From Candidatus Hermodarchaeota archaeon (GTDB lineage Archaea; Asgardarchaeota; Heimdallarchaeia; Hodarchaeales; Hodarchaeaceae): DNA of 32,000 bases. The DNA lies in the NCBI GenBank assembly GCA_048886185.1, contig JBHLKY010000028.1, positions 16,431-48,430 on the forward strand, written 5' to 3'. How positions within the stretch are numbered: the stretch's first letter is position 1; each line of letters starts with the position of its first letter. Of the stretch, positions 9,058-27,249 are shown piece by piece. The notes beneath the pieces were generated by a model. It worked only from the letters and a program-made list of their open reading frames with translations. It made no database searches and was not told where the DNA came from. A program made the position numbers and the translations under genes.

Positions 9058-10371
9058 CTACATGAAACTATGATCAGGAAAGTGAGGCTCCCAATCATCC
9101 TGAATTGTTCCACTGGCATACACCGTCATTTTTAAGTCTTCTAGAAGGTTCTTCTTAGCGTCTTGAATATCTTCAGGAGTAATTTTCATTATTTCCTCTT
9201 GAAATTCTCTTAAAAAGAGTGGATGACGGAATTTAACGAATTTCTGGGAAAGATCAATACCATAATTAGTAGGATCTTCGATTTCGGAGAGATATGCTCC
9301 CCAGGTTTCTTCCTTCAATACAGAAGTAATTTCCGAGGTGATCTCAAGGTCATGAAGGTGAGCTAGTAGGTCTATGACCTTTTGAAAAACATTTTCTATT
9401 TCATTAGGGGGAGTGATGAAAAAAATACTACTTATAGAGACGTCATTGAGCGCCTCAAAGCTGTAACGACAAACACTGGCTATTCCTTTACTGGTGATTT
9501 CACGATATAATAAAGAGGTTCGTGAATTCCCAATATAAGTGTTTAGCAACAATAAAGGTATAAAATTTGTCGATTGGACGCCTGGAGCTGTCCAAGTCAG
9601 AGTCACATAAGAAAGGGGTTTAGAAAAATCCTTTTTATGAAAAGAAATATCATTAAGAGTGTTTCTATGAGATATGTAGTTAATTTGGGGTGGATAAATG
9701 GGATTTATTTTTGGTTGAAGAATCGGATCGTTGAAAAGAGAAATTAAATACTGTTTTTCCACTTCAAGATCGAAACCTCCCACAAGAGTAACAATTGCAT
9801 TATCGAGTGAGTAATATCTAGAAACATAATCAATCATCATTTCATAAGTAATTGACCCAACAGAATCATGTGTTCCAAGAATATTGTGCTCTAGCGGTGT
9901 CCCTTTGAAGTGCTTTTTTCGGGCTTCATAGTTGGTATCGAATTCTGGCATATCTGCATATAGTTGAATCTCTTGCAATATAACCTGTTTTTCAGATTCA
10001 AATTCTTCTCTATTAATGACCTTATTAACTAATAAATCCTTCCAAATTTCAGCAGCTTGGTGTAAATTTCGTGTAGGTATCTTAGCATAATATAATGTAT
10101 GGTCATATGTGGTATAGGCGTTTAAATCGGCACCTAATCGGGTGAATGCTTCATTGATCTGTTTTGAGGTTCTATTTGGAGTACCTTTAAAGAACATATG
10201 CTCTAAGAAGTGGCTAATGCCATCATTTGATCCAGGGCCAAATCCACTTTCGTACATACTTCCAGCGTGAAACCCCACTGCAAATAGAGTTGTTTTACCC
10301 CCTGGAATAGAAATTAATTGGATTTTCAGATTATTATCCATCGTAACTATTTCTGATTGTTCAACACTCAT
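9058..10371 (-). CDS. M16 (pitrilysin family, M16B-type) zinc peptidase, catalytic subunit
   Basis: Inverted zinc motif HFLEH (GISHFLEHMFFKGT), NAYTTYDHTLYY, downstream Glu in EKQVILQEI. Confidence 0.93.
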   Translation of the reverse strand: MSVEQSEIVTMDNNLKIQLISIPGGKTTLFAVGFHAGSMYESGFGPGSNDGISHFLEHMFFKGTPNRTSKQINEAFTRLGADLNAYTTYDHTLYYAKIPTRNLHQAAEIWKDLLVNKVINREEFESEKQVILQEIQLYADMPEFDTNYEARKKHFKGTPLEHNILGTHDSVGSITYEMMIDYVSRYYSLDNAIVTLVGGFDLEVEKQYLISLFNDPILQPKINPIYPPQINYISHRNTLNDISFHKKDFSKPLSYVTLTWTAPGVQSTNFIPLLLLNTYIGNSRTSLLYREITSKGIASVCRYSFEALNDVSISSIFFITPPNEIENVFQKVIDLLAHLHDLEITSEITSVLKEETWGAYLSEIEDPTNYGIDLSQKFVKFRHPLFLREFQEEIMKITPEDIQDAKKNLLEDLKMTVYASGTIQDDWEPHFPDHSFM

Positions 10372-10381
10372 TTAAAATTCC

Positions 10382-11635
10382 TCAATTCACGCTATAAGTA
10401 TTACTTTGCCAATGCTGCCGAATTTTTACAGGATTAATATCACCTGCAACGGCTAAACTAAAATTATCTGCATTAAGAAGGGTGTTCTTCCACCAGGAAT
10501 GGATATTTTCTTTTGTAACACCTTGAATCTCATCATAACCAGATTCGATGTCTGGAGAGAGACCATGAACTTTTCTGTTAATGATTCTAGAAGCTGTTAA
10601 ACGGGAATCATCAAACGCTAGATCAAGTTGTCCTAAAATAAAATCACGTGTGGTGTTATATTCTTCTTGTGATATTCTTTGTTTTCCCATATCAATGAGT
10701 ATTTCTACTAATGAGTCAATTGCTTCTTCTACTCGTTCTGGAGAGGTTTCCATATAACATCGAATAATAATTGTGTTTGCAAGGAGTTTTAAAGTCGCTC
10801 CAGTGATGTACCCAAAAGCTTTTTGATCACGTAAAACTGAAAACATTCTAGATCCAAAAGATTCTCCTAGAAGAGCACTTGAAAATCTAGCTACTCCAAT
10901 TAAAGCTGGGTTAACTTCTGTTATAACATTAAGACATAGATAAACACTACCCTCTTCTTTAACTGGGGTAGCAATTATCTGATTGGGTGAAACATCCCTT
11001 GGAGGAAAAGAATAGGGATTTTGAACATTGCTTTTTAAGCTAGTGAAAAATCTAGAATATTTCTGATTGATTTGTTCACCGAGAGAGTCTGAAATTGCTC
11101 CAACCGCAAATCCCCAAGGTGATACTAGCAATTTTTCATGAGCTGTCTGAAGATTGTCTCTCGTAAGCTGGTCTAAAGATTCTGGTGTTCCAATCTGAGA
11201 GCGACCTAAAGGATGGTTCTCTCCAAAGGCCGCTTTATCCGCGTCAAAGATCATCATTCTTCTTATAGGATTTGAATTAACCTGATGGAAAATTTGGATC
11301 AGGTTTTGCTTTTCTATTAAAACATGATCTTTTTCTAGGGTTGGGTGTAATATCATTTCAAAAAGAAGATCAAGGGTTCTTATAGCATATTTTGGTTGAA
11401 TTTGGGCTCCAATCACAGAAAAATCTTTTTCAGTTGTTGAAAATAACGACCCACCTGTCCCATCAATTAATCTAGCAATTTCAATCTCATTATGTTGTTC
11501 TGTGCCGCGTGCCATAGTTTGTAATAAAACTTGGGTAGTACCTGCTAAGGAATCATGAGCTGCACCATGGTTGGTTACTATTCCTAAGCATACATTGCGT
11601 AGGTTAGGATAAGAACGAATTACTTGTGGGAACAT
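10382..11635 (-). CDS. M16 peptidase, non-catalytic partner subunit
   Basis: M16 fold motifs (RGT, HPLGR...GT.ESL, SRMFSVLRDQKAFGY) with HxxEH replaced by QVLLQ. Ten nt from the catalytic gene. Confidence 0.88.
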   Translation of the reverse strand: MFPQVIRSYPNLRNVCLGIVTNHGAAHDSLAGTTQVLLQTMARGTEQHNEIEIARLIDGTGGSLFSTTEKDFSVIGAQIQPKYAIRTLDLLFEMILHPTLEKDHVLIEKQNLIQIFHQVNSNPIRRMMIFDADKAAFGENHPLGRSQIGTPESLDQLTRDNLQTAHEKLLVSPWGFAVGAISDSLGEQINQKYSRFFTSLKSNVQNPYSFPPRDVSPNQIIATPVKEEGSVYLCLNVITEVNPALIGVARFSSALLGESFGSRMFSVLRDQKAFGYITGATLKLLANTIIIRCYMETSPERVEEAIDSLVEILIDMGKQRISQEEYNTTRDFILGQLDLAFDDSRLTASRIINRKVHGLSPDIESGYDEIQGVTKENIHSWWKNTLLNADNFSLAVAGDINPVKIRQHWQSNTYSVN

Positions 11636-13400: not shown

Positions 13401-13784
13401 TCATTGCTGGGTTGCTTTCTCCTTCCGTAGTTTGATGATCTCATCTTGAATTTCTTTAATTAATTGATCATACGGACAGAGAAGGCATAAATCAATGTTT
13501 CTGATTTCTTCAGGATTATTAACATTAAAAAGAGAACCCTCATCAACTAATGTAGCTAACCCTTGAGGTACGTAGACAATACCCTCCTGAATAAGTCTAA
13601 ATATCTCTCTTAGCATATTTTCTTTTTCCTTAAGTGTACGAATCTCAAGAAGGTTGAGTATAAATTGTAGGTTTTGTTTTTCTGTGTCTTTAAATGATAG
13701 CAACAGTAAAGCACGATCTGTTAACTGTTTTCTTTCTTCCTCTGTTATTTGAATTTCTTTCAACATATTTTTCTTTGATATCAT
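13401..13784 (-). CDS. hypothetical protein, paralog of 14364-14828, possibly wHTH-like
   Basis: 60/96 identical residues in an ungapped manual alignment with the 154-aa ORF. Confidence 0.8.
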   Translation of the reverse strand: MISKKNMLKEIQITEEERKQLTDRALLLLSFKDTEKQNLQFILNLLEIRTLKEKENMLREIFRLIQEGIVYVPQGLATLVDEGSLFNVNNPEEIRNIDLCLLCPYDQLIKEIQDEIIKLRKEKATQQ

Positions 13785-13906
13785 TGAAATTCAGACCTTC
13801 CTAACTAGGTAATATAGGTTTCAAAGATGATTCTTGAAGTAGGTTATTTTTGAATAATGATTAAGGAACAGATAGATTACATGTTTCAAATTAAGTTTTC
13901 ACTTTC

Positions 13907-14338
13907 TCAGACTTGGTTTTTGATAGGTAAGTAATATTTTAATAACTGTTTAAGTAAAGAATCCTTTTTCAGTCCCAAGAATGGAACCAACTCTCGTTCA
14001 ATTTGGGATAGGACATCAGATGTTGAACAAAAATCTGGAAGGTGTAATTTTTGTCTGATGGAATTTATTTCACAAAAGATTTCATATAATTGGACAAACT
14101 TGTTAACATGAAAATTGAAGGTTTTCCGGACATCTTCAAGATTATTGAAAAGTTTCACAAGATCTTCAATGGAAGTGTGAGGAGGTAGATCTAACGCTGA
14201 TTGCATATGCTTTATACAACGCCAAGTGGCAATCAGATCATGTTCAGAGGATCCACTAGCTATTTTTAGATAATCTTTAAGCTCTTGATATTCCTTTTGT
14301 CCTTTAAGATCCTCTAATATGAGATTTTCATAAGTCAT
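13907..14338 (-). CDS. hypothetical helical protein with internal repeat
   Basis: 143-aa ORF with ATG start. Two similar segments: IKHMQSALDLPPHTSIEDLV and INSIRQKLHLPDFCSTSDVL. Confidence 0.7.
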   Translation of the reverse strand: MTYENLILEDLKGQKEYQELKDYLKIASGSSEHDLIATWRCIKHMQSALDLPPHTSIEDLVKLFNNLEDVRKTFNFHVNKFVQLYEIFCEINSIRQKLHLPDFCSTSDVLSQIERELVPFLGLKKDSLLKQLLKYYLPIKNQV

Positions 14339-14363
14339 AATTTTTCACTCTTTTATTGACATA

Positions 14364-14828
14364 TCAGATACTATTAATTGGTTTTTTAATTTGTATCTGA
14401 GATAATTCGTTCTGAAATTCTTTGATCAATTCCTCAAAAGGACGAAGAAGGCATAAATCAATATTGTCAGCTTCAAAAGGACTGTGAATGTCAAGACACG
14501 AACCATAGTCTATCAATTGGGGAAGTCCTCGGGGAACATAGATAATCCCTTCACGGATCAACCGATAAATTTCTTGTAAAATATTCCTCTTCTCCTCTAA
14601 TGTACGAATCCCAAGAACATTGAGTACATATCTTAAATTTTGAGTAGAAGTATCTTTAAATGATAATAGTAACAAAGCCCGATCCGCTAAACGATTAGCT
14701 ATAAGATCATCCCTTAATTCTTCCCTAATTTTCACGGATTCTTGGATAGGATTATTCAGTAGGGCTTCATGAGCCTTATCGTTCCTATTTGGTTCTTGTT
14801 TTCTGATATAAGTAAAATCTGAGTACAA
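14364..14828 (-). CDS. hypothetical protein, paralog of 13401-13784
   Basis: TTG start preceded by GGAGG (14838-14842). Shares DRALLLLSFKDT, RLI.EGI.YVP.GL and NIDLCLL with its paralog. Confidence 0.82.
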   Translation of the reverse strand: MYSDFTYIRKQEPNRNDKAHEALLNNPIQESVKIREELRDDLIANRLADRALLLLSFKDTSTQNLRYVLNVLGIRTLEEKRNILQEIYRLIREGIIYVPRGLPQLIDYGSCLDIHSPFEADNIDLCLLRPFEELIKEFQNELSQIQIKKPINSI

Positions 14829-14830
14829 AT

Positions 14831-15100
14831 TTAGAAACCTCCAGTAAGAGCATAACGAGAACTATCAGCTGGGTCTTGAATCATTTGCAGCTTTTCATGC
14901 GAGAAATACTCAATCAAGTCAAGAAAATACGAGAGAAGCTGTTTAATTTCTGAGTCAGAAAGATTGTCTTTATTCTTCATTTGGAGAATGCAAATCCTAT
15001 TGTGAACTTCTAATGAGGAAAAAAGATTAGTGGACATGAATAATAACTGAAAAATCCGATCTAACGATTTTTTGATGCCAAATTGGTCTGTAACTTGCAC
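14831..15100 (-). CDS. hypothetical protein (89 aa)
   Basis: GTG-start ORF ending 2 nt before the next gene. Its 3' end carries that gene's SD, which suggests translational coupling. Confidence 0.55.
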   Translation of the reverse strand: MQVTDQFGIKKSLDRIFQLLFMSTNLFSSLEVHNRICILQMKNKDNLSDSEIKQLLSYFLDLIEYFSHEKLQMIQDPADSSRYALTGGF

Positions 15101-15665
15101 TCTTATCTACGTCCGTGTAATTTTTGATAAATTCGCTTTGAGTGCCTTTCAAAACCGGACTTTGATATAATGGGAAGATATTCGAATCTGACAAAATTCG
15201 TTGGAATGTGTCTACAAATGTGCAAATATCATATGGTAAGATATACAATATTACGACAAAAAACACCTGGGAGTATCTAAAAGGTAAATTTCCCCCCATT
15301 GCTATAGAAGTGTGCGATTGTTATGATGGATGACCAAAAACCAAAGCACTTGACGCTTGAAGAGAATTAATAATATGTTATATAATATACCTAAGGTACT
15401 TTGAGGGATTTAGAGGGCCATTAAAAGGCCACGTATTACCCAGGGAGGATTATCATCCTGAGTCGATTCAAACAATACTAGGTACAATGTACAAAAGGAC
15501 TACTCTAGGGTTAAGTTCGTAAATTTCCTCTAATATAAGGATATTTATTGGTCATTTTGATGAGTTTTCTTCGTATACCCAATGGAAAGGTTTTCATTCT
15601 TGTTCTCGACTAGCATTGTGGGAGAACAGATTTCCTAATTGGAATTGTGGCCCTGATTTTAATGC

Positions 15666-15818
15666 TCAATCTACTATGCAACCAGCTGGTCCAGCTGAAA
15701 CGGCTGTTCCTAAAGACGATGCAGCTAGGTATAGCAATATTAGGAATAACCAAGGAAGCATTTTTAATAGCATTAGTTCTACATCAATTCTTTTCTCGCG
15801 ATTTCTAACTTTTCTCAT
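15666..15818 (-). CDS. small signal-peptide-like precursor P1 (50 aa), not in ORF track
   Basis: Manual translation MRKVRNREKRIDVELMLLKMLPWLFLILLYLAASSLGTAVSAGPAGCIVD. Homologous to P2 (24639-24800). Upstream AAGAAAAGGTG. Divergent from regulator R1. Confidence 0.8.
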   Translation of the reverse strand: MRKVRNREKRIDVELMLLKMLPWLFLILLYLAASSLGTAVSAGPAGCIVD

Positions 15819-15959
15819 TGTTTTTTACACACCTTTTCTTTTTTTTCGGTTTCATTATTCAGTTCTGTGCATTAAGAGTTTTCATCAAACTTTAATTCAC
15901 ATTCGAATATATTGTCTAGACAGGTTTTTAAATGATACTACCCTTCTTTTCGGCATCAA
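15819..15959. promoter_or_regulatory. divergent promoter region P1/R1
   Basis: TATA-like TTAAATG at 15928-15934, 25 nt before the R1 ATG. On the minus strand, ACTGAATAATGA (15852-15863) and AAGAAAAGG (15832-15840), both shared with the P2/R2 region. Confidence 0.6.
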
Positions 15960-17399
15960 ATGCCTCTCCCCCAACAAAATGCTTTACTGCTGGATAATTT
16001 CCGACAAAAACCGGAAGAATATAAAATAGAGGAATTTGTACTTGATTTTCTCAATATTTGGATGTACATCCATGAAAAAGCGGAGAATTATTCACTAGAA
16101 GATACAATGGATTTTACACAAGATCTATTAGAGTCTTATACTACTCCTTTTTTCAATAAATATAGAGATGATGAAGCAATAGAATTTAATGAAAGCTGGT
16201 TCAAATCTTTTAGCTCAATTATCCTAAAGTGGAGAAATAGGGGGAGTTACTTATTCCCTCTTAAATTAGTAACATATGAGATATGTTACCATACCAAACA
16301 ACTTTTTGAATTCTTCCTGCAAAAATTATTAACAAAAGAGATCAAGGGAGAAAAAGAGGCCCTCTTCGAATTTCTTTTTCCAATCCTGACTAATTTTACG
16401 GTTCCTTTAGATGACCTTTACATATCCCTTTTAAAAGCATTTCAAGGATTAGAAAGGCATAATCCTGCCTTTTATAGGCAACCGACTCAAAATGACTTCG
16501 CAAAACGTCTGGATATATCCCCTAGGACTGTATTACGGCGAATGAATATCATTCGCTTATTACAAATGGTTCATGCTCTTCATTTCTTAGATATGGGAAA
16601 GCTCGGTTATGAAACTACTTTTTTTGTACACAAGAACCCTTTCCCTGACCACTACACTAAATATCTACTCTTCTCGACTGATTTAACAATAGGGAATTTT
16701 AGTATTGTACAGATTCCTTACAACAAGTCGAAAGAAGTATATTTACTCCAAGAAAATTTAGATATTATCATTTCTCAACCAATGCAAACCAGAATTTCTT
16801 CCTGGAACCTAACAGGTTTGTCTCAAGGAGAAGATACCTGGCGTAATCCTCCCCCTTTCTTACACGGAGACTTAGATATTTCATTAATTTCTCCAAGTCC
16901 TGATTTTAGTTTCTCTCTTAAACCCTCTTTTGATCCTTTTCGTCCACTAACTCCTGCAGACACTAAAATTCTTGACTTTCTTTCAATTGAGGGAAGCTTT
17001 ACTAGTATTAAACAACTTAGTAATACTATTAAAGTATCGCCACCAGAAATTTCTAAGCGACTTCAGGAATACGGGAAGGAGAAGTTATTAGTCAAGATGA
17101 ATCAATACTATAATATTGGATTAGATTTGACTATTTTTTTCTTTGTTTCTACAAATGATAGTAAGATTCCTTGGGTTCAACATTTCTTGAGCTTCCCAAA
17201 ATGTGATATCTTTTATCAAGAAGAAGAATCACCTAACTATTATTTTGGTTATCTAAAGATGCCCAAAGATTGGATTAAAGATTTTGCTCGTAAAATTGAT
17301 CTAATTAAAAGAGATTATGATACAAAAATATATTATAAAATCGCTAGTTCTGTCGACTATGTTAAATGGGGGATAACCTTGCATGAAACTTATTTTTAA
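15960..17399 (+). CDS. R1: tandem Lrp/AsnC-like wHTH transcriptional regulator with N-terminal helical domain
   Basis: HTH1 TQNDFAKRLDISPRTVLRRM followed by LDMGKLGY linker. HTH2 LTPADTKILDFL...IKQLSNTIKVSPPEISKRL followed by NIGLD and a RAM-like domain. Confidence 0.85.
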   Translation: MPLPQQNALLLDNFRQKPEEYKIEEFVLDFLNIWMYIHEKAENYSLEDTMDFTQDLLESYTTPFFNKYRDDEAIEFNESWFKSFSSIILKWRNRGSYLFPLKLVTYEICYHTKQLFEFFLQKLLTKEIKGEKEALFEFLFPILTNFTVPLDDLYISLLKAFQGLERHNPAFYRQPTQNDFAKRLDISPRTVLRRMNIIRLLQMVHALHFLDMGKLGYETTFFVHKNPFPDHYTKYLLFSTDLTIGNFSIVQIPYNKSKEVYLLQENLDIIISQPMQTRISSWNLTGLSQGEDTWRNPPPFLHGDLDISLISPSPDFSFSLKPSFDPFRPLTPADTKILDFLSIEGSFTSIKQLSNTIKVSPPEISKRLQEYGKEKLLVKMNQYYNIGLDLTIFFFVSTNDSKIPWVQHFLSFPKCDIFYQEEESPNYYFGYLKMPKDWIKDFARKIDLIKRDYDTKIYYKIASSVDYVKWGITLHETYF

Positions 17400-24638: not shown

Positions 24639-24800
24639 ATGAATAGAACTATAAGAATCCGAAAAAAAGAAATTGATGTTGAATTAACACTATGGAGGCT
24701 ACTTCCATTCTTCTTCGCATTATTATTGATCATTGTATCTGCAACGATCATAGGTGTAAGTGGTTCTGCCCCTGGAGCTGCCCCACCAGCATACGAATAA
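24639..24800 (+). CDS. small signal-peptide-like precursor P2 (53 aa), not in ORF track
   Basis: Manual translation MNRTIRIRKKEIDVELTLWRLLPFFFALLLIIVSATIIGVSGSAPGAAPPAYE. Shares IDVELxL..LP with P1. Divergent from R2. Confidence 0.8.
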   Translation: MNRTIRIRKKEIDVELTLWRLLPFFFALLLIIVSATIIGVSGSAPGAAPPAYE

Positions 24801-25686: not shown

Positions 25687-27249
25687 TTACATAAAATTAT
25701 TGGTATAGTTCGAATCATTAATACAATTGAGAGTCGTGGCGATTATATCCCTCTTTAAATTCTCATATTTTCTTTGTATTAGATCTAGAAATGTTGGTAT
25801 CCCAATTTCACTAATTAATTGTCTTAAATCAAGTTGTTGTAAGATTTCCTTGGTAATTGGTCTTTTACTATTCCAATAGATGAAAGATTGATAGAATTCT
25901 TGTGTGATAGGATGGTCTAATAAAGTATGGAGTATGGCAGCTTCCTCAAATGATGTTACTGGAATGAAGTAGCATGTATCGTCAAATACGATAGGTTTCC
26001 CGTCAAAAGATTCTATCAATCTAAATTTCAGCTCCTTATAAAACCCAGAAATAGCAACCTTCCAAGGGGAAAAGGTATAAGTCCCAACACCAAAGATAGA
26101 GTATGAAGGGCGATCATGATAGATACTACTGACTCGGTTGTTTAGTAAATATGCATAGTTTTCGAGATAGTGCCATGTTAAAGGGCATTTTTGCCGAATA
26201 GTTGAAGTATCTTCCCCAATAACCTTTTGAGTTACAACCATCCATCGTGTAATGTTTTTAACTCGATTATTAGCTAAATCCGAGCTTTTAAGCATGGGAT
26301 AAATGAGATCCTCTTCAATCGAAACGATTTCTCCAAATCCATTTATGAACTGATTTTCTTTCTGTCTTAATTCCATTACTTTTACACAATCATGTTTGAT
26401 ACCTGAGCGCCATGTGTAAATACAAACTCCCAGTAAATGTTTCCACTTTTTATAGAATGGAATATTTCCTATTATTCTTCCGTTAATATAACCAATTTCT
26501 TGAATGGGTCTTTTTAAATTTAAGTTCTGATAAACTAGACAGCTATAATTATAGGAATCTGGTTTTAAGCTGCATATGAATAAACAAGCATCAACTGAGG
26601 CACCAAAATGCTCTTTAGCATCAATAAGATAGATGGCTGAAGATAATATTGGCATCTTCTCTTTGAAAGCGTACATCAATACTTTTCGTGCAACAGCAAC
26701 CTTACAAAGCATCGCAAGAGTACTCGAATGTCCATTCAAAGTTTTTAAAAGCTCAATTATCATCCATTCTGATATATCAAAATTGCTTTTACCTGTTTTT
26801 GCATCCATACCTTGGTACCCATAGATATTGTGTTTCTCTGGAACATTAGTTCCCCCCAAGGTACCAATTTCTGAGGAAGTAATCCAAGGAGGATTCCCAA
26901 GTACTAATATTGGTTTTATAAGTTCTCCAATCTTTTGTGACCAATCGATGTTAAAAAAGTCTGCCTGCTGGAGAATGACTCTTTCAGATGCATTTATTTG
27001 TGATAGTTTTTCCGATAAGTCGTTTAAATATTTATTATTGATATCAAATCCAAAAATCCTTGCATCCTGAAATGTATCGATACATGCGAGGATAAATGAA
27101 CCAGTTCCACAAGTTGGTTCAATGATTGAACTGGGAATAACTCCTAGCTGATTTAAATGGTTAACAATTTCCTCTGCTAATATGATTGGTGTTTGAAAAT
27201 CACCTAATTCTTTAATTTTTTGATTTTTTTGTTTTTTCACATCTATCAT
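25687..27249 (-). CDS. N6-adenine DNA methyltransferase (gamma class, type II-like)
   Basis: Motif X GDFQTP, motif I IIEPTCGTGSF, motif IV GNPPW, and a C-terminal TRD-like region. Confidence 0.9.
   Translation of the reverse strand: MIDVKKQKNQKIKELGDFQTPIILAEEIVNHLNQLGVIPSSIIEPTCGTGSFILACIDTFQDARIFGFDINNKYLNDLSEKLSQINASERVILQQADFFNIDWSQKIGELIKPILVLGNPPWITSSEIGTLGGTNVPEKHNIYGYQGMDAKTGKSNFDISEWMIIELLKTLNGHSSTLAMLCKVAVARKVLMYAFKEKMPILSSAIYLIDAKEHFGASVDACLFICSLKPDSYNYSCLVYQNLNLKRPIQEIGYINGRIIGNIPFYKKWKHLLGVCIYTWRSGIKHDCVKVMELRQKENQFINGFGEIVSIEEDLIYPMLKSSDLANNRVKNITRWMVVTQKVIGEDTSTIRQKCPLTWHYLENYAYLLNNRVSSIYHDRPSYSIFGVGTYTFSPWKVAISGFYKELKFRLIESFDGKPIVFDDTCYFIPVTSFEEAAILHTLLDHPITQEFYQSFIYWNSKRPITKEILQQLDLRQLISEIGIPTFLDLIQRKYENLKRDIIATTLNCINDSNYTNNFM

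Follow-up and report, generated by a model that had tools for sequence, protein, structure and literature searches.

A gene of 50 codons, here called P1, lies on the minus strand of the window, i.e. the whole stretch of 32,000 nucleotides that was analysed (Table 1). It is transcribed divergently from the gene of a 479-aa regulator, and 141 bp separate the two. Within this common intergenic region are a perfect 10-bp palindrome, TGTCTAGACA, which may act as an operator, and an adjoining TATA-like sequence, TTTTTAAATG, which may represent a TATA or promoter element and is located approximately 30 nt before the regulator ATG. A second cassette of the same kind is found further along the window, where a paralogous small gene, P2, adjoins a 478-aa regulator with 45% identity to the first. 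The spacer of this second cassette contains a TCTAGA core as well as AGAC...GTCT half-sites around TTTAA. The third cassette is on another contig (G000:C4, about 225.7-227.4 kb) and encodes a small protein with a Pro/Thr-rich tail. A six-frame HMM census of the genome detected exactly three such small genes, one beside each of three regulator paralogs.

Table 1. Features of the P1 cassette, of the second cassette and of their surroundings in the window.
Feature	Position	Strand	Evidence or remarks
P1 coding sequence, 50 codons and TGA stop (15666-15668)	15666..15818	-	ORF list, conserved frame, dN/dS, public gene calls
P1 basic head, residues 1-19, predicted cytoplasmic; R5, R7 and K19 invariant or nearly so	15762..15818	-	Alignments, pooled dN/dS 0.08
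P1 hydrophobic core, residues 20-33, starting M-L-P, Pro22 invariant	15720..15761	-	Run lengths in family, dN/dS 0.09
P1 S/T-rich junction S-S-L-G-T-A, residues 34-39, with candidate signal-peptidase site after A39	15702..15719	-	Offset profile, (-3,-1) counts
P1 short tail VSAGPAGCIVD, residues 40-50, predicted extracytoplasmic	15669..15701	-	Ortholog pattern, tail length, dN/dS about 0.5
Octapeptide GPAGCIVD of the original prediction	15669-15692	-	
Candidate cut after G37, leaving a 13-mer	+15 from Pro22		Fits 44/56 members
Candidate cut after A39, leaving the 11-mer VSAGPAGCIVD	+17 from Pro22		Fits 49/56 members
Candidate cut after A42 (original prediction), leaving the 8-mer GPAGCIVD	+20 from Pro22		Fits 26/56 members
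AGGTG, Shine-Dalgarno-like, 11 nt 5' of P1 ATG	15830..15834	-	Identical in seven orthologs
Divergent intergenic region, 141 bp, common to P1 and regulator	15819..15959		Column conservation 0.80-0.92, seven orthologs
Perfect 10-bp palindrome TGTCTAGACA	15913-15922		Conserved in seven orthologs
TATA-like TTTTTAAATG adjoining palindrome	15925-15934		Conserved in seven orthologs
137-aa ORF overlapping P1, spurious	15616..16029	+	Broken in six orthologs, not called on public contig, no Pfam hit
Partner regulator, 479 aa: N-terminal helical domain (1-145) and two Lrp/AsnC-type modules (winged helix and RAM)	15960..17399	+	AlphaFold2, Foldseek, Pfam
Regulator N-terminal domain as folded alone, residues 1-150	15960-16409		
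P2, small gene of second cassette, 53 aa, tail ending APPAYE	24639..24800	+	Paralogous to P1
Second-cassette regulator, 478 aa	23067..24503	-	
Two adjacent M16 peptidase genes	9058-11635	-	About 4 kb from P1
Four co-oriented orphan genes (127, 143, 154 and 89 aa)	13401-15100	-	No Pfam hits
90-aa ORF	15027-15299		Not called
520-aa protein, weak N6-adenine DNA methyltransferase matches	25687-27249	-	About 900 bp past P2

Several other genes surround the two cassettes. Four co-oriented orphan genes downstream of P1 are called on public contigs, and those of 154 and 89 aa are conserved in a relative. The 350-400 bp immediately downstream of P1 are poorly conserved. Two M16 (insulinase/pitrilysin-type) peptidase genes are located farther along the same strand. 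M16-family peptidases cleave short peptides; no link with the cassette is indicated here, since M16 genes are absent at the other cassette of the window. The 520-aa protein encoded past P2 carries an NPPW motif.

The original prediction had placed an archaeal precursor protein at this locus, and the minus-strand frame of 50 residues, with the strings quoted from it, is present in the ORF list, as is the overlapping 137-aa ORF on the plus strand. The gene did prove archaeal, and in the tblastn search with P1 that had been proposed as a check the frame was open, and of comparable length, in 19 of the 21 genomes of the genus (E <= 1e-4). A profile of the family matched a P1-like gene in 19 of 20 genus genomes. 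The same profile yielded no credible match in 280 other genomes of the phylum, where the best match (E 1.5e-4) was situated within a long unrelated frame. As judged by these searches, the P1 family is restricted to one Hodarchaeales-type Asgard genus.

Among six orthologs of P1, pairwise dN/dS values of 0.07-0.34 were obtained in the P1 frame only, and variable columns fell 16/9/30 by codon position, with the third position dominating. The ATG and the stop position are identical across seven orthologs, and GGTG or GGTGA occurs in many paralogs at the place where AGGTG precedes P1. Paralogs with only 27-50% protein identity hold the same length and plan. A structural-plan filter, drawn up after the family had been seen, was applied to ORFs of 45-56 aa; of 4276 in this genome it passed exactly the three family members, and of 3432 in the reversed genome it passed none.

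Public gene calls include 34 clusters of P1-type small proteins of 49-68 aa, and PGAP and Prodigal call the 50-aa gene in many assemblies. Several of these entries are PGAP 'hypothetical protein' records whose locus tags adjoin those of the regulator, and P1 is annotated in all databases as 'hypothetical' only. A public contig encoding an identical protein has a gene call for the 50-aa frame but none for the 137-aa ORF. The latter frame is open in this genome alone and reaches no more than 71 aa in all six orthologs. The expectation that it would hide P1 from automated annotation was therefore mistaken. Frame conservation, dN/dS, the AGGTG element, the broken rival ORF and the public calls together establish that P1 is a genuine gene under purifying selection and one that annotation has not missed. 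A Pfam search with P1 returned no family, and the best score in an ESM Atlas feature search (0.79) was under the useful range. Also, no longer proteins bearing the P1 leader were found, which is weak evidence.

The anatomy of the small-protein family was derived from 56 distinct sequences, in which positions were counted from an invariant proline (P22 in P1). The plan common to the members consists of a basic head with K-x-x-P, a hydrophobic core, a Ser/Thr-rich stretch running to G-x-A/G, and a Gly/Pro-rich tail. Residues 1-19 of P1 include eight Lys or Arg against three Asp or Glu. The n-region had originally been given as ten residues; the quoted strings are present in the protein, but ten residues (IDVELMLLKM) before the h-region had been skipped, so the basic head is 19 residues long and not 10. 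Position -3 from the proline is Lys in 52 of the 56 members and Arg in the other four. Phe at +3 and Leu at both +6 and +7 hardly vary. In 48 members, 13-14 residues make up the strictly hydrophobic run when x-x-P is included. Ser, Thr or Ala then occupies +11 to +13 and a hydrophobic residue +14, followed by Gly at +15 (35/56) and Ala or Gly at +17 (49/56).

The distal part of the family combines constrained length with variable sequence. Twenty-six to 30 residues follow the invariant proline in 53 of the 56 members; 33 members end in Asp and four in Glu. Tails measure 7-15 residues across the family, usually with Asp at the end. Orthologous tails follow the pattern G-P-x-[GS]-x-[IL]-[IV]-D, examples being GPASTIID, GPIGSLVD, GPNGSLID, GPNGALID, GPAGAIID and GPHGAIID. 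The tails of co-resident paralogs, unlike those of orthologs, are unrelated to one another. Distant subfamilies have Pro/Thr-rich tails, yet a G-[IVLM]-[AST]-D-P junction at unchanged distance, and the G-x-A junction is kept at a fixed distance even in subfamilies without K-x-x-P.

The signal-peptide-like build that had been recognized in P1 holds for the family as a whole: the positive head corresponds to the n-region of a class I signal peptide, and the core of 13-14 residues falls within the h-region range of roughly 7-15. Signal peptidase I favours small residues at positions -3 and -1. By a simple (-3,-1) rule counted over the 56 members, which is not a trained predictor, small uncharged residues at these positions and the absence of Pro at +1 are found after A39 in 49. 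A cut there would also leave a canonical six-residue c-region, and S-L-G-T-A/V (cut between A and V) is on these counts most likely the best family-wide cleavage-type site. The genome encodes an archaeal signal peptidase I, matched by TIGR02228 with 78 bits (cut-off 51.85). In the oligopeptide-binding proteins (SBP_bac_5) of this genome, the h-regions measure 13-18 residues and end in VSA, VQA, INA, AVA, VTA or VGA, and the core and junction of P1 look like these local Sec signal peptides, although its head is two to six times longer than theirs. Compared with Sec class I signal peptides in general, P1 shares the positive n-region, the h-region length, a polar c-region, small residues at -3 and -1 and no Pro at +1. 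It differs from them in an n-region of 19 residues with invariant positions, in a 'mature' part of only 8-13 residues, and in a leader that is more conserved than its cargo.

The candidate C-terminal peptides of P1 are VSAGPAGCIVD, TAVSAGPAGCIVD and GPAGCIVD. The last of these was the product originally predicted, from a cut after A42. A-V-S-A does stand directly before this octapeptide, and the tail is, as had been stated, too short to fold. The exact cut fared less well, with the (-3,-1) rule satisfied in 26 of the 56 members as compared with 49 after A39. Since the A39 site fits more members and gives the canonical c-region, the octapeptide is one option and not the favoured one; GPAGCIVD is an unlikely candidate for the product of P1. 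The Cys-bearing character of the predicted peptide did not extend beyond this copy of the family, the only one with Cys47, and cyclic or disulfide forms are therefore not a family feature.

Four other classes of export signal were considered and rejected. A class III (type IV pilin/archaellin) signal would require G or A directly behind the invariant Lys, where all 56 members have L, M, F or I. The conserved arginines do not form a Tat signal, as they read R-x-R, lie 12-14 residues before the core, and the boundary itself reads L-L-K-x-L-P. A lipoprotein signal is contradicted by Cys47, which follows P-A-G and is replaced by S, T or A in orthologs. Double-glycine leaders have no hydrophobic core and were ruled out on that ground.

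The partner of P1 was modelled with AlphaFold2 at a pLDDT of 91.4. The model consists of an N-terminal domain followed by two modules, each with a winged helix and a beta-alpha-beta-beta-alpha-beta domain. The best Foldseek match was the fused tandem Lrp-like protein NirDL (4ch7; E 6e-8), and the next were many Lrp/AsnC regulators (probability 1.0, E 5e-3 to 4e-2), several of which have been solved with bound amino acids. Identity to solved Lrp/AsnC members is 13-19%. Pfam HTH_24 scored 22.6 bits against a cut-off of 21.9, and HTH_AsnC remained below its cut-off. According to the model, the regulator possesses both the winged helix-turn-helix and the RAM domain expected of an Lrp/AsnC protein, and the predicted RAM modules have the ligand-binding fold of these regulators. 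The two winged-helix and RAM modules are shared with Lrp/AsnC and NirDL/AhbAB proteins; the extra 145-residue N-terminal domain is not. When folded alone, this domain was helical with one beta-hairpin (pLDDT 92). Searches with it returned only E > 1 in Foldseek against the PDB, a best Z of 4.8 in VIA-align and TM <= 0.40 in the ESM Atlas, which is not proof of a new fold. AimR appeared among the VIA-align rows at Z 3.3, amid unrelated rows.

Homologs of the regulator were detected in all 21 genus genomes. In 19 other genomes of the class, two weak matches were obtained (best E 1e-4), both in one genome of the same order. A library of 1.84 billion representatives contained 99 clusters of the regulator family at E <= 1e-3. 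Across the genus, a P1-like gene is transcribed divergently at 140-320 bp from approximately 27 of the 35 main-family regulator copies, and more distant cassettes likewise retain a small divergent gene built on this plan. The three most distant regulator homologs examined have no nearby small gene of the P1 plan, one homolog being located at a contig end. In relatives, tandem arrays of three to four regulator paralogs were observed (G001:C14:65-76 kb, G005:C14:1-6 kb and G020:C234:5-14 kb), and five tandem-array regulators are without a small gene of their own. Because only one member per array adjoins a small gene, the other members may be 'orphan' regulators.

The distance matrices of the small proteins and of the regulators are correlated (Spearman r = 0.65), a value that none of 5000 permutations reached, and the nearest neighbours of the two proteins agree in 14 of 24 pairs. 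Judged from these comparisons, P1 is tightly linked to its regulator and co-diverges with it, and the pattern is consistent with duplication of the small gene and the regulator as a unit. Domain-wise partial correlations between regulator domains and parts of P1 were flat (<= 0.34), with no domain prominent. A complex prediction for the regulator and P1 gave a score of 0.13, where the mark is 0.32, and counts neither for nor against an interaction. The gene content of the cassettes includes no dedicated exporter or importer and no immunity genes. The genome contains 33 SBP_bac_5 matches, none of them linked to a cassette, and has peptide uptake capacity by virtue of these. At least six SBP_bac_5 genes form a tandem array at G000:C2:75-88 kb, and the matches together suggest that the repertoire for taking up peptides is large.

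Selection is distributed unevenly along the small protein. Pooled dN/dS (ω) was 0.08 for the head, 0.09 for the core, 0.51 for the junction and 0.48 for the tail, so that the leader is the most constrained segment and the tail and junction the least. Values above 1 were looked for in the tail and were not seen, so diversifying selection is not demonstrated; the tail evolves faster than the leader, but not neutrally. A conserved leader followed by a variable product is the pattern of several bacterial pheromone precursors. This pattern fits a pheromone precursor and a membrane helix with an unimportant stub equally well. An unimportant tail is hard to square with its constrained length and terminal Asp, and to judge by the alignments the tail looks functional rather than filler. 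A leader more constrained than its cargo is seldom seen in signal peptides that are simply discarded, and suggests that it has a role of its own. The alternative set out in the original prediction, with either the tail or the leader as the functional product, remains the right question.

The explanation that best accommodates these features, held tentatively and at somewhat less than even odds, is that P1 is a Sec-inserted pre-peptide that is cut at the conserved junction and releases a cassette-specific peptide functionally linked to the tandem-Lrp regulator. We infer the membrane topology of P1, its cleavage and the site of it, the release and the signalling role. The basic head would remain in the cytoplasm while the core of 13-14 residues is inserted via the Sec pathway in an N-in, C-out orientation. 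Signal peptidase I would then cut the small-x-small junction, family-wide most probably after A39. This would release a short Gly/Pro-rich peptide with a terminal Asp, either an 11-mer or, if the cut fell after A42, an 8-mer. The peptide, different in each paralogous cassette, could serve as a cassette-specific extracellular signal, which the neighbouring regulator would sense directly or indirectly and thereby control the cassette. A divergent regulator-target pair requires no signalling loop. The further proposal that the cassettes constitute archaeal peptide cell-cell signalling, with an exported and cut precursor whose C-terminal autoinducer is read by the tandem-Lrp regulator, is rather unlikely as a complete scheme.

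The RRNPP(A) cassettes of Bacillota and their phages (Phr-Rap, PapR-PlcR, NprX-NprR, AimP-AimR) are functionally nearest to the P1 cassette. In these systems, a pre-peptide of 40-60 aa begins with a secretion signal and ends in a short peptide whose sequence differs from paralog to paralog. Its gene adjoins that of a cytoplasmic helix-turn-helix receptor, as P1-like genes adjoin most main-family regulator copies and all three regulator paralogs of this genome, and the cassettes multiply within genomes. In contrast to the TPR receptors of RRNPP(A), the partner of P1 is a tandem Lrp/AsnC protein with an unmatched N-domain, and its AlphaFold2 model matches NirDL and Lrp/AsnC folds and no TPR-type domain. 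Also, the genes of the P1 cassette are divergent whereas those of RRNPP(A) are co-directional, the P1 leader is long and highly conserved, and the host is an Asgard archaeon. Surveys of RRNPPA systems in the literature deal with Gram-positive bacteria and the viruses that infect them (PMC12700828). The P1 cassette could, by analogy, work like an RRNPP(A) system but is no member of that group, as it lacks the TPR fold and its host is outside the known range. Literature searches found nothing on the P1 family, no archaeal counterpart of peptide pheromone systems, and no small-peptide partner of an Lrp-type protein in archaea. To our knowledge, peptide pheromone systems have been described only in bacteria and their phages.

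Nearly as likely as a processed pre-peptide is an uncleaved single-pass membrane microprotein, again with the N-terminus inside and the C-terminus outside, in which the conserved head and helix would be functional and the short tail an exposed stub. Such a protein might be a target of the divergent regulator, e.g. a small membrane-protein modulator, or its head might tether the regulator at the membrane. The strongest purifying selection rests on exactly these parts (ω 0.08-0.09 against about 0.5 in the tail), R5, R7, K19 and P22 are invariant, and the nearly fixed Phe at +3 and Leu at +6 and +7 are what helix packing would predict. The strictly hydrophobic run of only 13-14 residues speaks against a membrane anchor, but the uncharged M20-V49 span could make a helix of about 22 residues when the S/T/A-rich junction is included, which is long enough for stable anchoring. 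Among Lrp-type regulators, the divergent regulator-target pair is the commonest arrangement, and P1 and its partner fit it. Less easily reconciled with an uncleaved protein are the G-x-A junction, kept at its fixed distance even where K-x-x-P has been lost, and the constrained length and terminal Asp of the tail, which an idle stub would not need. Small membrane modulators and tethered anti-sigma factors resemble P1 in its predicted form, being proteins that span the membrane once, have the N-terminus and a short head in the cytoplasm, and are linked genetically with a transcription factor. Unlike anti-sigma factors, P1 has a head of only 19 residues, no recognizable anti-sigma domain and no linked protease.

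It is improbable that the leader itself is the product. In that case an intramembrane protease would, after the signal-peptidase cut, cleave near the invariant proline, and the basic N-terminal fragment would act on the regulator, by analogy with the fragments produced by eukaryotic signal peptide peptidase and with the enterococcal pheromones cut from lipoprotein signal peptides. Such a route would account for the strongly conserved head and for a helix-breaking proline at the start of the core, and a fragment already in the cytoplasm would need no re-import to meet a cytoplasmic regulator. No intramembrane protease is linked to the cassette, however, and the constrained tail would be left unexplained.

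Very little probability attaches to P1 being a membrane-active antimicrobial or toxin-like peptide controlled by its neighbour. Its size of about 50 aa, cationic head and hydrophobic helix are reminiscent of cationic leaderless bacteriocins and small hydrophobic toxins, but P1 is a core gene under purifying selection in nearly every genus genome, immunity and export genes are absent from the cassette, and the partner is a 480-aa DNA-binding protein, not one of antitoxin size. That the ORF is untranslated, its conservation being due to a regulatory region or an RNA, can be practically dismissed: the sequencing runs containing the locus are DNA runs of sediment metagenomes, which may be its source sample, with no RNA run listed, but the dominance of third-position variation, the low dN/dS in this frame only, the conserved ATG, stop position and AGGTG, the retention of length and plan by divergent paralogs, and the lack of Rfam (gathering and permissive thresholds) and tRNA matches at the locus all oppose it.

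P1 is a lineage-restricted variant of the theme of a small secreted or membrane pre-peptide with an adjacent regulator, and its host lineage is of interest for eukaryote origins. If P1 stays in the membrane, it would nonetheless be a conserved microprotein, and one associated with a regulator of new architecture. If signalling by a released peptide proves true, the tandem-Lrp regulator would represent a class of receptor with no relationship to the TPR receptors of bacteria, and one that occurs in the order of archaea placed nearest to the eukaryotes. The candidates can be synthesised; one genome supplies three peptides with as many regulators, and the genus as a whole supplies dozens. The P1 cassette provides actual peptides and regulators with which peptide signalling in Asgard archaea can be tested, and these cassettes could thus serve to examine secreted-peptide communication in this group with an Lrp-type protein as the sensor.
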